The notes beneath the pieces are model-generated. The model was given only the letters and a program-made list of their open reading frames with translations. It had not been told where the DNA came from and did not search any database. Position numbers and translations under genes: made by a program. From Candidatus Parcubacteria bacterium (GTDB lineage: Bacteria > Patescibacteriota > Minisyncoccia > Phycocordibacterales > JAACPR01), in contig JBDLUA010000024.1 in the NCBI GenBank assembly GCA_039805545.1, positions 1 through 56,803 on the forward strand: DNA of 56,803 nucleotides, in the 5' to 3' direction. Positions 6,225 to 50,601 of this stretch are shown here, piece after piece. Numbering within the stretch: position 1 is the stretch's first letter; each line of letters begins with the position of its first letter.

Positions 6225-6299
6225 AGTTGAGAGCGAGGATGACATGGTTGAGATTAGGGATGACATGCTAAGATTGTATGGTAACATGCTTAAAATATG
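6214..6299 (+). repeat. four progressively degenerating ~21-bp tandem repeats running into the dus start codon
   Basis: Units are gaggatgacgtagttgagagc, gaggatgacatggttgagatta, gggatgacatgctaagattgta and tggtaacatgcttaaaatatg. The first unit overlaps the palindromic element arm. Confidence 0.6.
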
Positions 6300-7355
6300 A
6301 ATTTTATAAAAAGACTATTTGTAAAAGAAAAAGTAAGTCTTGGGTTTTGGGCAAGGTTGCCTAAGCCTATTATTGTGCTTGCCCCAATGGCAGATGTGAC
6401 TGATGTTTCATTTAGACAAATGTTTGCAAAGTATGGTAAACCAGATGTGACATGGACAGAGTTTGTATCTGCTGATGGTCTTTGTCTTGCGCCTAAGACT
6501 AATGTTGATGAGAGTGGAATGTCGGGACATGACAAACTTTGGAGAGATTTGCTTTATTTTGAAAATGAAAGACCTATCGTCGCACAACTTTTTTCTGGAA
6601 ATCCAAAATATATGGAGGAAGCTGCATATCAAGTGACAAAAATTGGGTTTGATGGAATTGATATTAATATGGGTTGTCCTGATAAAGCGATTCAAAGACA
6701 AAAGGCTGGATCATTTTTAATAAAAGAACCTAAACGAGCGACTCTTATCATTGAAGCAGTGAAGAAGGGAATTAATCGAGCAAGTAAAGATATGAAAAAA
6801 GAACCAATTCCAGTATCAGTAAAGACACGACTTGGATTTAATACAGATGTAATGGAAGAATGGATAACACATATTCTTAAATCAAAACCCGCAGTGCTTA
6901 CGATTCATGCTCGAACACGAAAAGAAATGTCTAAAGTTCCTGCACGATGGAATCGAATTAAAGACGCAGTAGAACTTCGAAACAAATTAAAATCAGAAAC
7001 ACTTATTTTTGGAAATGGCGATGTGACAAGTCTTAGTGATGCAAAACAAAAAGCACAAGAAACTGGATGTGATGGGATTATGGTCGGCAGAGGAATATTC
7101 GGTAATCCTTGGTTTTTTGATGAAAAGAGTGAGGGAGGTGAAACAATTTCTCTTGAAGAAAAATTACGTGCACTTGTAGAGCATACCTATCTTTTTGAAA
7201 AGCATCTTTCATATAAAAACTTTGCACTTATGAAAAAACACTACAAGGCATACATTCATGGATTTGAACATGCAAAGGAATTACGAGCAGATTTAATGGA
7301 GGCTAACTCAGGCAGGGAAGTTGAGGGTATAATCGAGGCTTTTTTGGGGAAATAA
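6297..7355 (+). CDS. dus: tRNA-dihydrouridine synthase
   Basis: 352 aa with Dus family motifs (APMADVTDVSFRQ, GIDINMGCP, HARTR, GNGD). Confidence 0.9.
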   Translation: MNFIKRLFVKEKVSLGFWARLPKPIIVLAPMADVTDVSFRQMFAKYGKPDVTWTEFVSADGLCLAPKTNVDESGMSGHDKLWRDLLYFENERPIVAQLFSGNPKYMEEAAYQVTKIGFDGIDINMGCPDKAIQRQKAGSFLIKEPKRATLIIEAVKKGINRASKDMKKEPIPVSVKTRLGFNTDVMEEWITHILKSKPAVLTIHARTRKEMSKVPARWNRIKDAVELRNKLKSETLIFGNGDVTSLSDAKQKAQETGCDGIMVGRGIFGNPWFFDEKSEGGETISLEEKLRALVEHTYLFEKHLSYKNFALMKKHYKAYIHGFEHAKELRADLMEANSGREVEGIIEAFLGK

Positions 7356-7362
7356 AAAGTAC

Positions 7363-7391
7363 TTGACAATATTTTAATAGTATGCTATCTT
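7363..7391 (+). promoter_or_regulatory. sigma70-like promoter for candidate RNA A
   Basis: TTGACA (7363-7368), 17 nt spacer, TATCTT (7386-7391). Confidence 0.45.
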
Positions 7392-7394
7392 TAT

Positions 7395-7775
7395 ACAAGT
7401 AAAGATCTTCCAGCCAGACCTGAAGGTTTGTCGTAGGCCGTCCCGAAAAACCCATGCCTCCAAACCTTCAGGTCGAATTTCCCCCGGAAAAAGTGAGACG
7501 GGACACAGCTAGAAAGGCAAGTTCCCCCCCCTATGACCAGCCTTCCGCTGCGTCCCGTCTCCAACTTTCTTCCCCCGTTCCCCCCGGAACAAAAGGCGTT
7601 GAGTGCGACAGTTGTCAGGGTTAAGATTAAGAATCTTCCCGAAAAGCTGTTCACCACCATCCCCCCCGACTTATACTGCTTTTGCAGCTGTCGTGCTCCG
7701 CCAACCTTTCGACTACAGGGTGTAGTCAAAAATCCCCGTGAACTCGATTCTGAGCGAGTCCGGGGGTTTTCTTTT
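7395..7775 (+). ncRNA. candidate structured RNA A (unassigned, C-tract rich)
   Basis: GC-rich in an AT-rich genome, with no credible ORF. 14-bp helix 7417-7430/7461-7474 and 10-bp helix 7495-7504/7552-7561. Terminator hairpin 7734-7765 is followed by a T-run at 7767-7779. Six C-tracts. The strand call rests on the promoter and terminator; the C over G excess is atypical. Confidence 0.45.
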
Positions 7776-7777
7776 GT

Positions 7778-7806
7778 TTGACAAATATATGGTGTCGGGT
7801 TACTAT
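7778..7806 (+). promoter_or_regulatory. sigma70-like promoter for candidate RNA B
   Basis: TTGACA (7778-7783), 17 nt spacer, TACTAT (7801-7806). Confidence 0.5.
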
Positions 7807-7812
7807 ATGCTT

Positions 7813-8030
7813 TCAAGGGTCCTTAAGGGGGCACTTAGTGCCACACATGCAACCACTCGTCTGGCATCCTTTCAAGGGACGGGATACAGATCAAATTCGG
7901 AGAGTGGATCGGGCATGTGTGGCACGCTTTGTTCTTTCTGTTGCCACAAATAGTGATGCACGAGTGTGTGTCACAAAAACCGCGTCTGTCTCGCTAATTG
8001 AGTGTGTGAGCTGACGCGGTTTTCTTTTTT
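7813..8030 (+). ncRNA. candidate structured RNA B (unassigned)
   Basis: 13-bp helix 7838-7850/7913-7925 and nested 6-bp helix 7853-7858/7902-7907. UUUCAAGGG is repeated at 7811 and 7870. Terminator stem 7979-7986/8013-8020 is followed by a T-run to 8030. Confidence 0.45.
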
Positions 8031-8035
8031 ATATA

Positions 8036-8345
8036 AAAAACTTCGCCGCATTGCCGAGTGCACGGAGCAACTCAAACAATGGGCGAAGCTGAAAGAATGA
8101 TGGGATGACGCTCATCCCTCGGGCTTTGTTACGGAGGTCTGCACCTCCTTTCCACCATCGTTTTGCAACGAGGAGGTGGCGAGAGACTGGGTTTGTGAAT
8201 GACTGTAGACGGGTTCGAATTCATGGCTAGTCTTCTTTCCACCTTGTACCCATCAATTCCCTCATGGAAGAGTTGAGGACAAGTATGTACATTCAAAAAG
8301 AAAACACATACTTGTCCTCAAACAGTTCTGTATAAAGAACTTATA
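8036..8345. ncRNA. candidate structured RNA C (strand unresolved; local RNase P-like motifs on the + strand)
   Basis: Helices: 8041-8053/8077-8088, 8102-8118, 8133-8148, and a 14-bp perfect hairpin 8275-8288/8306-8319. Minus-strand reading: promoter TTGACA(8378-8373)-16-TACAAT(8356-8351), and the 8041-8088 stem followed by a U-run (complement of 8031-8040). Plus-strand reading: GGAGCAACTCAAACAATGGG (8064-8083), GTGAATGACTGT (8195-8206) and CGAATTCATGGCTAG (8216-8230) resemble RNase P conserved regions. Confidence 0.4.
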
Positions 8346-8389
8346 TTTTAATTGTAAAACTTTGAAAGGTGATGTCAATTTTATAAAAG

Positions 8390-8800
8390 GAAAAACCGCG
8401 CCCATGAAATTCCCAGAGGGAGAGTCGTGTGGGGCGCGGTTGTTGATTTGTGAGAACAGCCTGTGGCCAGGTTGCTGAAAATTTGAGTATCTGAGCAACC
8501 TGTAAACAGAAGTGTCCTTTGAGTGAAGTGCTGTCGGTGGTCGGGGTTTCTTTCTATTTTTGGCTTTTGTAAGTCTCCTTTTGCCTTGTTGGCGGCAGGT
8601 TCGTTACTTGGCGGTGGCGGCGTTCCGAATGGTGGCGGCGGCGAGGATGAGGGCGGCGTTGAGTTGGTGTCGGTGTTTCATGGTCGTGTCGATGCGGTGT
8701 TTGTGTCTGGATCTGCACCCGTGGAGCCATCAGTGGCGATGGGAGCAGATATATTGGAACAAACTTTGATCCGATATATCTGCTCTCATCAATACAAAGA
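8390..8800 (-). ncRNA. candidate GC-rich transcript D (unassigned); contains a 25-codon ORF
   Basis: Stem 8395-8403/8432-8440 with a U-run on the minus strand. 9-bp hairpin 8468-8476/8494-8502. 12-bp hairpin 8743-8754/8774-8785. Minus-strand mini-ORF 8604-8681 (MKHRHQLNAALILAAATIRNAATAK) has no SD. Confidence 0.3.
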
Positions 8801-8875: not shown

Positions 8876-9907
8876 ATGTCAGAGCACAAAACTCTTTATA
8901 CAAAATACCGACCACAAACTTTTAAGGATGTATTAGGACAAGATCATGTAACTTCTGTATTGAAAGAATCAATTTCACTTGGAAATACTGCGCACGCATA
9001 TTTATTTTTTGGTGGAAGAGGAACAGGGAAGACTTCTGTTGCTCGAATTCTTGCACGAGAGATTGGAACGAGTCCTGATGATTTATACGAAATCGATGCA
9101 GCATCAAATACAAGTGTAGATGATATTCGATCACTTAATGATGCGGTGCATGTATTACCTTTTCATTCAAAATACAAAGTGTATATTCTTGATGAAGTAC
9201 ACATGCTTTCAAAGTCGGCATTTAATGCATTACTCAAGACACTTGAAGAACCACCTGCTCATGTAATATTTATTCTGGCAACAACAGAGATGCACAAGGT
9301 TCCAGAGACGATAATTTCTCGATGTGAAGTCTATACTTTCAAAAAACCAACTCAATCACTTCTTACACAGATGGTTGCAAAGACTGCAAAGGCAGAGGGA
9401 GTAACACTTGAACCTTCGGCAGCAGGACTTATTGCACTTCTTGGAGATGGATCATTTCGAGATACACATGGAACTTTGCAAAAAGTAATTCATGCATCAA
9501 AGGACACAAAGATAACAGTTGAGGAAGTAGAGCGAGTGACAGGTGCACCTAAGGCAGAGCTTGTAAATCAAGTTATCGAATCTATTTCAAAAAAAGATAT
9601 TGAACAAGGTCTTTCTGCCATAACAATTGCGGTTGAACAAAACATTGATATGAGTGTGTTTGTTTCAATGATTCTTGCAAAAGTAAGAGCAATACTCCTT
9701 GTTCGATATTCGCCAGGTTTTGCAAAAACAATTGCAGAAACGGTAACTGAGGCAGATTTTTCTTTTATTCAAACTCTTGCACAATCCAAGGAATCTTATA
9801 TTTCATCACAAACTCTCAAAGTGTTACTCGATGCATATACTATGATAGGAAAATCGTATGCGCCGCATGTTCCTCTTGAGATTGCATTATTTGATTTAGT
9901 AGGATAA
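8876..9907 (+). CDS. dnaX: DNA polymerase III subunit gamma/tau (short form)
   Basis: 343 aa with GGRGTGKTS Walker A, ILDEVHML and the sensor/SRC region (ETIISRC). Confidence 0.9.
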   Translation: MSEHKTLYTKYRPQTFKDVLGQDHVTSVLKESISLGNTAHAYLFFGGRGTGKTSVARILAREIGTSPDDLYEIDAASNTSVDDIRSLNDAVHVLPFHSKYKVYILDEVHMLSKSAFNALLKTLEEPPAHVIFILATTEMHKVPETIISRCEVYTFKKPTQSLLTQMVAKTAKAEGVTLEPSAAGLIALLGDGSFRDTHGTLQKVIHASKDTKITVEEVERVTGAPKAELVNQVIESISKKDIEQGLSAITIAVEQNIDMSVFVSMILAKVRAILLVRYSPGFAKTIAETVTEADFSFIQTLAQSKESYISSQTLKVLLDAYTMIGKSYAPHVPLEIALFDLVG

Positions 9908-21173: not shown

Positions 21174-21269
21174 AAGTGAATTAAGTATTAAATTACTAGA
21201 TATTTGATAATATAATTATGGGTGCCCTTATACTATATTATTTACTTTGTGAATATATGAGGGTACTGT

Positions 21270-21353
21270 CGAGGTGTGGTGAAATTGGTATACACGAACA
21301 TTTACCAAATGTTTCCCTATATAGGGGTGCGGGTTCAAATCCCGTCACCTAAA
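21270..21353 (+). ncRNA. tRNA-Leu-like (type II, long variable arm) element with anticodon-position ACC and a defective acceptor stem
   Basis: D-arm ggtgaaattggtatacac and T-arm gcggg-ttcaaat-cccgt resemble tRNA-Leu. Anticodon stem aacat/atgtt with loop ttACCaa. Variable arm ccctatatagggg. Only 5 of 7 acceptor pairs form. The 3' strand can instead pair with 21376-21384. Confidence 0.5.
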
Positions 21354-21425
21354 GTTTGGAAAAACTTCTTATCTTTAGGTGGCGAATTTTATTGAGGATT
21401 GAGAACTAAATAAGAAATGACAGTT

Positions 21426-27509: not shown

Positions 27510-27526
27510 ACAACAAAGACCTAACC

Positions 27527-27727
27527 CCTAGAAAACCCTTAGTTCTCTAGGATATGGTCGGAATAAAACCGCTACAGCATAGAAGACTCCTCGTCAGAGT
27601 CGCTGTAGCGGTCATGTATTCGAAAGAGTATATGGGTAATCGAAAGATTATCGCGATGGCGGGGAGTCTTCTGTCCCGACTCACACTCTTCGCTGATTAT
27701 TATCAGTATTAAAAAACCGCTACAGTG
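27527..27727 (+). promoter_or_regulatory. structured leader RNA upstream of HNH/radical-SAM genes, with alternative pairings that include the start codon
   Basis: accgctacag at 27568-27577 and again at 27716-27725, the latter overlapping the GTG start at 27725. Its complement lies at 27602-27612. gaagactcc 27582-27590 pairs with ggagtcttc 27663-27671. Two GAAA-tetraloop hairpins (27617-27630, 27637-27650), one with a G-U pair that forms only on the + strand. Confidence 0.45.
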
Positions 27728-50439: not shown

Positions 50440-50601
50440 AATTCAATCATATATACAGGGAAGTGAGGTGAAATTCCTCCACAGTGCCGCTACGGTTAAA
50501 GTCCGATTACTATATATATGTTCATTAATCCCGAGCAGGAATTTCGATACAATGTATTGTCTCGTCGGCATATTCCTCTCATAAAGAGGTTTTTTATTTT
50601 T
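50440..50601 (+). promoter_or_regulatory. cobalamin riboswitch-like leader with a terminator expression platform
   Basis: acAGGGAAgtgAGGTGaAAttCCtccaCaGtgCCGCtACgGTtaaAGTCCG (50455-50505) resembles the B12 aptamer core. Hairpin cctct-cataa-agagg (50575-50589) plus T-run 50590-50601, just before the ATG at 50602. Confidence 0.5.

Follow-up and report, generated by a model that had tools for sequence, protein, structure and literature searches.

A structured non-coding RNA gene with unpaired C-runs downstream of dus in one genus of ultra-small CPR-like bacteria

RNA A is a predicted non-coding RNA of ~380 nt (7397-7775, + strand) encoded in a CPR-like bacterium whose genome of 682,907 bases (35.3% G+C) is rated 99.7% complete; the window analyzed here is the whole of contig C24 of this genome (G000), a stretch of 56,803 nt. 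Comparison of the locus with its counterparts in related genomes indicated that RNA A is a real, independently transcribed and structured RNA gene: it has a promoter and an intrinsic terminator of its own, no conserved open reading frame, and helices with compensatory changes, the features by which an independent sRNA gene is recognized. Its status as a new RNA family is solid; the evidence on its mechanism is suggestive only. What evolution appears to have kept in the family is a display rather than a sequence, i.e., unpaired runs of C carried upon covarying helices. The CPR/Patescibacteria have tiny genomes and, to our knowledge, almost no characterized RNA biology.

The block between dus (6297-7355) and dnaX (8876-9907) is 1.5 kb long, contains few ORFs, has ~50% G+C, and is made of four promoter-terminator units converging near 8035, so that the host spends 1.5 kb of 0.68 Mb on four strongly promoted, putatively non-coding RNA genes. 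RNA A is followed directly by RNA B on the same strand (7808-8032, or 7778-8032 with its promoter). RNA C (8345-8040) and RNA D (8806-8385) are read from the minus strand, each from a near-consensus promoter (TTGACA at 8378 and 8839, respectively) to a terminator. RNA D shows strong C/A richness with GCC repeats, and the 5' hairpin and tail of RNA C gave a weak match (17.5 bits) to a model of the RNA A P3 domain and tail.

The RNA A promoter (7363-7391, + strand) is of the sigma-70 type, with a -35 element TTGACA (7363-7368), a 17-nt spacer and an extended -10 element TGcTATCTT (7383-7391), scoring 10 of 12 matches plus the TG in a promoter scan; transcription would start at ~7397-7399. The predicted fold was well below that of shuffled sequences on the + strand (z = -8.96) and less so on the minus strand (z = -5.56). 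It begins with hairpin P1 (7417-7474), a 14-bp stem with an inner stem above it, which in the alignment is an insertion unique to the host genome and a gap in the other six homologues. The long hairpin P2 (7495-7561) pairs 7495-7509 with 7547-7561 and has inner stems up to 7523/7535; linker J2/3 (7562-7594) joins it to the P3 domain (7595-7702). Within the long outer helix of P3 (7595-7615 with 7684-7702) are two hairpins, P3a (7618-7640) and P3b (7642-7650 with 7675-7683, closing a 24-nt loop). A conserved word, GCUGUUCACC (7646-7655), runs along the 5' side of the P3b stem and into the start of the loop. The 3' tail (7703-7732) holds AACCUUUC, a 7-bp hairpin (7711-7727) and an A-run, and the terminator (7733-7775) closes the RNA with a stem and a U-run. 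The ORFs lying over RNA A had no Pfam match, and no ORF on either strand was conserved across the RNA A homologues.

The first-pass annotation had drawn attention to six runs of C lying between two perfect helices on a strand nearly free of G-runs, and had proposed that the RNA would show several single-stranded C-rich loops. All six runs were confirmed, and so were the helices, of 14 bp (7417-7430/7461-7474) and 10 bp (7495-7504/7552-7561), each with arms that are perfect reverse complements. The G5 run (7762-7766) is indeed in the terminator stem and is the sole + strand run of at least four G in RNA A. In line with the proposed display, five of the runs are predicted unpaired: C-tract 1 (7481-7485, C5; UUUCCCCCGG; P(unpaired) 0.94), C-tract 2 (7524-7531, C8; P2 apical loop; 0.99), C-tract 3 (7572-7576, C5; linker J2/3; 0.63), C-tract 4 (7580-7585, C6; in the CCCC loop of a 5-bp mini-hairpin at 7577-7590; 0.67) and C-tract 5 (7661-7667, C7; P3b loop; 0.99). 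C-tract 6 (7734-7737, C4; 0.00) pairs with the G5 run in the terminator, in agreement with where the first-pass annotation had placed that run. Most of the tracts have a U directly before them.

Such a collection of C-runs is unusual both for the composition of the RNA and for the genome. Five runs of at least C5 arose with p = 0.0004 in 20,000 composition-preserving shuffles; genome-wide, there are 104 C-runs and 122 G-runs of at least five, or ~0.13 expected per 381 nt. RNA A holds 3 of the 30 genomic C or G runs of at least six and 2 of the 8 of at least seven; nowhere else in the 0.68-Mb genome are C-runs clustered as densely. A small C-tract cluster was also seen at a gene end on another contig of the host (C8:19150-19245), where a C8 is followed by a C5 in a terminator stem with a G5; it may be another C-tract-bearing 3' element.

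Members of the RNA A family were found in 7 of the 8 species-level genomes of the genus, always directly downstream of dus. When RNA A was compared with 40 relatives by BLASTN, the promoter alone was matched, and homologues were therefore sought by synteny; the six further members were located by the dus-dnaX synteny (G002, G003, G004, G005, G007) and by the C-tract pattern (G006). BLASTN found no paralogue of RNA A within the host genome. A near-identical promoter (cTTGACAAt...TGcTATACT) precedes every homologue and each has its own terminator, a retention that supports the + strand as the one transcribed, as first proposed from the promoter and terminator in the host. The predicted transcripts range from 176 to 496 nt, are G+C-rich and carry several U-C(4-8) tracts. 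They share a common plan: a leader with UUCCCCC, the long hairpin P2 whose apical loop carries one to three C-tracts, a linker bearing a C-tract, P3 with two hairpins, a U/G-rich tail and the terminator. P3b in this plan has a GCUGUU stem and the conserved loop CACC...UCCCCCGA. The words GCUGUUCACC...UCCCCCGA and the U/G-rich tail (UUUCC...GUGUGUUGUUGG) were seen in each of the six further members, and the tail reads UUUCC...AUAGUGUGUUGUUGG in homologues other than RNA A. G002 is a minimal form without P3.

The tracts recur at four homologous places, namely the leader, the P2 loop, J2/3 and the P3b loop. C-tract 1 corresponds to the 5'-leader tract of G007, G005, G003 and G002, which is 11-20 nt away from the 5' end, and appears in the homologue alignment as a conserved unpaired UUCCCCC; the J2/3 tract is present also in G007, G005, G004 and G003. 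In all seven homologues the mean P(unpaired) of C4+ tracts outside the terminator was 0.76-0.92, whereas the remaining Cs had 0.25-0.36 and the Gs 0.12-0.18. The first-pass annotation had allowed that the tracts might fade in relatives or might pair with partners it had overlooked; they are kept, lying unpaired between helices that change in a compensatory manner, and no such partners are indicated, the tracts being predicted single-stranded in the seven homologues. The number of tracts per RNA runs from two to seven, and high valency is not universal, since G002 has only two and G003 three. The tracts are kept although the G+C content of the fetched loci differs widely between genomes (~35% to 56%), and their retention in the G003 and G006 loci, at 52-56%, argues against an artefact of composition.

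Both long helices are supported by paired substitutions, with statistics that are indicative only, as they come from four to seven related sequences of one genus. For P2, with four homologues aligned by plain MAFFT, there were 15 pairs, 96.7% paired, and 9 of them had two-sided changes; none of 500 shuffles was as good, and sliding the partner strand gave 37-53% paired. For P3, in a model-fitted alignment of four members, the values were 23 pairs, 93.4% paired and 13 with two-sided changes, again with 0 of 500 shuffles as good, and with 29-48% paired for the slid partner. A covariance model built from G004, G005 and G007 found RNA A at 24.4 bits (E = 8e-5).

Related-strain contigs, taken from four DNA sequencing runs, showed how the tracts vary over short distances: through indels the P2 loop has gained a UCCCC unit and two other tracts have become shorter, and P2 and P3 stay. 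Tracts are gained, lost or resized within loops, and the loop remains C-rich. In a related strain (run X3, a 5.3-kb contig) the flanks are kept and 7703-7933, 8039-8333 and 8441-8761 are occupied by unrelated sequence of similar length; the segments swapped are the 3' end of RNA A with the 5' end of RNA B, most of RNA C, and the core of RNA D.

The family is small and appears to be restricted to one genus of ultra-small CPR-like freshwater bacteria and to evolve fast, with the restriction only weakly supported by what was seen outside the genus. P3-domain models (R1 and R2) recovered G000, G004, G005 and G007; they gave no match in 150 genomes of the order and nothing significant in 25 genomes from other genera of the family, where one marginal match was seen (G018; 18.7 bits, E ~0.1). 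These absences are weak evidence because the models are insensitive, missing the visibly homologous G003 and G006. In a set of 80 metagenomic dus loci, no multi-C-tract region lay downstream of dus outside the genus, and one close relative (L060) had an RNA-B-like gene replacing RNA A. The dus-dnaX pair is kept across the family with a gap ranging from ~20 nt in G001, where dus and dnaX are adjacent and no RNA A match was found elsewhere in the genome, to 2.8 kb in G003. This gap is a variable hotspot (relatives L044-L055); the gaps of G005, G004 and G003 further contain a ~190-aa gene preceded by a promoter of the leaderless type. We saw no evidence for a widespread, analogous class of C-tract RNAs: a pattern of three UCCCCC words occurred in 28 of 401 genomes across the phylum, about equal to the reversed control, and 13 of the 14 matches inspected were inside open frames of at least 110 aa (the exception being L151).

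We compared RNA A with known families. No Rfam family matched the dus-dnaX RNA block, none reaching its gathering score within 7200-8700, and at E<=10 the RNA A locus matched neither 6C nor RsaE nor another bacterial C-rich-loop family; the weak matches were at chance level and were mostly to microRNA precursor models. At E<=0.01, the 12 syntenic loci of relatives likewise gave no family, housekeeping RNAs included. Because no Rfam family matched, RNA A is not taken to be 6C, RsaE, SRP, 6S or RNase P RNA, and no catalogued family explains the architecture described by the first-pass annotation. The Rfam models for RNase P RNA and tmRNA found their genes outside of the locus (C15:8231-8565 and C13:1148-1524, respectively). 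Zero matches were obtained genome-wide, RNA A locus included, for the 6S and the small and large SRP models; the SRP RNA and 6S RNA genes, and the 16S 3' end, may be divergent or unassembled. An SRP-RNA identity was considered since ffs often lies upstream of dnaX, and GCUGUUCACC resembles part of 4.5S RNA; it was rejected for want of an SRP model match and of the GGAA/AGCA domain IV motif.

The 6C RNAs of high-GC Gram-positive bacteria are short and have conserved C-rich hairpin loops. Like 6C, RNA A would be a stand-alone sRNA gene showing C-runs in loops, and it belongs to a host in which Hfq is likewise not detectable; the loops of 6C pair through G-C pairs with several mRNAs and do so without Hfq or ProQ. 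It differs in size and architecture, being in its several forms 176-496 nt, multi-domain, and furnished with two to seven tracts in loops, linkers and 5' leader, and in being confined to one genus of a 35%-GC, 0.68-Mb CPR-like lineage whereas 6C belongs to Actinobacteria, so that RNA A is not counted among the 6C RNAs, which the first-pass annotation had named as users of C-rich loops. For M. tuberculosis B11/6C, the C-rich loops bind G-rich sites in mRNAs free of a chaperone (PMC6486639). Unpaired UCCC motifs mark a class of regulatory RNAs in S. aureus (Geissmann et al. 2009), with RsaE/RoxS and RNAIII having unpaired U-C-rich motifs in their most conserved regions, often in several copies (PMC2790875). 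RNA A resembles this class in having an unpaired U-C-rich motif in conserved regions of a terminator-ended RNA. It departs from it in that those RNAs pair with the Shine-Dalgarno (SD) region and block initiation whereas the host shows no SD signal upstream of 600 ORFs; furthermore, it has no sequence or covariance-model similarity to them, its tracts are longer (C5-C8), and the RsaE of B. subtilis, at 114 nt, is only a third to a quarter of its size. RNA A thus lacks each testable defining feature of the 6C and RsaE/RoxS-type classes except the unpaired U-C-rich motif; by analogy, these RNAs would be its functionally closest relatives. RepG of Helicobacter pylori uses a single C/U-rich terminator loop upon one main target with a variable G-repeat. 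The likeness is in a C-rich loop set against a homopolymeric G-run that is not an SD site, and in a homopolymer length that varies among strains; the difference is in its one loop and one main target, and no homology with RNA A is known.

Translation signals in the host bear on what such loops could pair with. Upstream of the starts of 600 long ORFs, SD-like tetramers were found in 5%, compared with 8% in a control window, GGAGG in 0 of 600 and GGGG in 1%. TAnnnT hexamers peaked with their 3' end at -6 and -7 from the ATG (81 and 59 occurrences, against a background of ~15), and a -10 box ending 6-7 nt before the start is the pattern expected of leaderless mRNAs. This suggests that host mRNAs are mostly leaderless and SD-less. 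At dnaX itself, TATACT ends 6 nt before the ATG. RNA A therefore sits in an organism without the textbook target of C-rich-loop RNAs, the Shine-Dalgarno site.

The mechanism we favor, at somewhat less than even confidence and largely by analogy, is that RNA A is multivalent and, without the help of a chaperone, pairs with G-tracts or sponges them. The exposed C-runs would nucleate G-C-rich duplexes in trans with the G-runs of other transcripts; the target would not be an SD site, as the genome has essentially none, and candidate partners are the ~146 runs of G5+ in ORF sense strands and the 5' AAGGGGG of RNA B. The outcome would be regulation of the partner, or sponging, without a chaperone, as for 6C and RsaE-type RNAs. 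Sense strands of coding regions hold ~146 G5+ runs and 34 C5+ runs, as counted over crudely called long ORFs with the spurious ORF over RNA A removed; this 4.3-fold excess means that G-rich partners are plentiful and free C-runs rare. In favor of pairing, Hfq, CsrA and Rho were not found in the host genome, and 6C loops act chaperone-free (PMC6486639). Against it, no specific target emerged: the G-runs are not enriched near start codons, and a search with four of the C-rich loops for exact complements gave a longest match of 11 nt, about chance level.

RNA B was considered as a partner closer at hand. It has the 5' AAGGGGG tract in G000, G004 and G007 and a long hairpin that appears to covary, and is conserved in G004 and G007, with the RNA-B-like gene of L060 lying after dus; it is missing beside RNA A in G005 and G002. 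The two RNAs have a common 3' module (CUUUC, a hairpin with GAGUGUGU, an A-run and the terminator), which elsewhere in the host genome was found only in RNA B. Complementarity between RNA A and RNA B does not reach beyond the C5/G5 runs, and the duplex energy of the full-length pair, computed by a method ill-suited to the question, was no better than for shuffles in 2 of 3 genomes. RNA B may be paralogous to RNA A or may be its partner. That RNA A is a new kind of multivalent poly-C display RNA, which would leave ribosome-binding sites unmasked and instead capture coding-region G-runs or the G-tract of the adjoining RNA B, or titrate a protein that binds C-runs, is a rather improbable reading in our estimate; were it true, poly-C display would constitute a layer of post-transcriptional control specific to ultra-small episymbiotic bacteria. 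If partners are found, they would show the role of C-rich-loop RNAs where there is no SD to mask, and would offer a first way into the post-transcriptional regulation of an uncultured lineage in which Hfq, CsrA and Rho were not detected.

The main rival to pairing with G-tracts, although itself unlikely, is that the U-C(5-8) tracts bind a single-stranded RNA-binding protein, e.g., a KhpA-like KH protein or a lineage-specific one, which RNA A would titrate or assemble. Repetition of a short loop motif is the hallmark of sponge RNAs, GGA in CsrB/RsmZ and CA in CrcZ, and RNA A resembles these in repeating a motif in the loops of a structured, strongly promoted RNA, with a copy number that varies among relatives. 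A KhpA-type KH protein is encoded by the host (C26:5498-5710; 76.6 bits), and the failure of a specific RNA target to emerge also speaks for a protein ligand. The RNA A motif, however, is U-C(n) and so differs from both GGA and CA, neither of the cognate proteins CsrA and Hfq was found, and G002 has but two tracts. Nothing ties KhpA to RNA A, and C-specificity is not a known property of Khp proteins: the KhpB of T. thermophilus had a similar Kd for C10 and for a 10-mer lacking C, showing no C preference (PMC12408800). Rho, the classical binder of C-rich RNA, was not found in the host genome, and the idea of RNA A as a Rho sponge was dropped for the same reason.

Alternatively, the tracts could serve the architecture of the RNA itself, through tertiary contacts, pseudoknots with G-rich segments or pH-dependent C-C+ structures, and RNA A would then be a part of a ribonucleoprotein or a sensor rather than a base-pairing regulator; we consider this somewhat less probable than a protein ligand. 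In its favor, the RNA is multi-domain and, at ~180-500 nt in the family, larger than the 60-120 nt typical of C-loop sRNAs, the conserved non-C words (GCUGUUCACC and UUUCC...GUGUGUUGUUGG) suggest functions beyond the C-runs, and alternative pairings are possible around P3b. On the other side, RNA A is poor in G (82 G and 120 C), and each homologue has zero or one run of G4+, used in the terminator where present. Tract number, length and position also vary freely between species and strains, as would be expected of a display role more than of a fixed tertiary fold.

It is quite improbable that RNA A is accessory or selfish, a fast-evolving product of a variable intergenic hotspot that does nothing for the cell and whose C-tracts are slippage-prone homopolymers maintained by mutation bias. 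The size range of the gap, the loci of G001 and L060 without RNA A at the site, the fast turnover that leaves only the promoter within reach of BLAST, and the strain in which 7703-7933 is replaced by unrelated sequence would all agree with this. Set against them are the compensatory changes that keep two long helices, the conserved promoter and terminator, and the persistence of C-runs, which are rare in the genome and avoided in mRNAs, at loci from ~35% to 56% G+C.

The anti-Shine-Dalgarno action suggested by the first-pass annotation, by which C-rich loops would repress translation through pairing with the ribosome binding site of targets as in RsaE/RoxS and RNAIII, now seems very unlikely. 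RNAs of that class are recognized by unpaired UCCC-type motifs in their conserved regions (PMC2790875), and a U precedes most of the tracts; nevertheless, SD-like words are depleted before host genes, GGAGG is absent there and the -10 hexamers take the leaderless-type position, and a pure run of C would mismatch the A of GGAGG. The 16S 3' end, where the anti-SD sequence would be read, is absent from the assembly. Least credible is the suggestion that function lies with the minus strand, through a G-tract or G-quadruplex RNA or through a 141-codon ORF (7391-7816), since, although that frame is open and the minus-strand fold does beat shuffles, the frame is not conserved (G007 has no minus frame of at least 30 aa) and has no Pfam match, every homologue has its promoter and terminator on the + strand, and 15 G.U cells in the conserved P2/P3 helices, which become A.C mismatches if read on the minus strand, fix the + strand as the folding one.

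Elsewhere in the window, two further RNA elements scored above the Rfam gathering threshold, a LOOT RNA at 27518-27652 (64.7 bits) and an AdoCbl-II riboswitch at 50448-50520 (48.3 bits). An 86-nt tRNA-like gene at 21269-21354 is odd in length and anticodon, being called tRNA-Gly(ACC) by ARAGORN and matching the Rfam tRNA model with only 39 bits.
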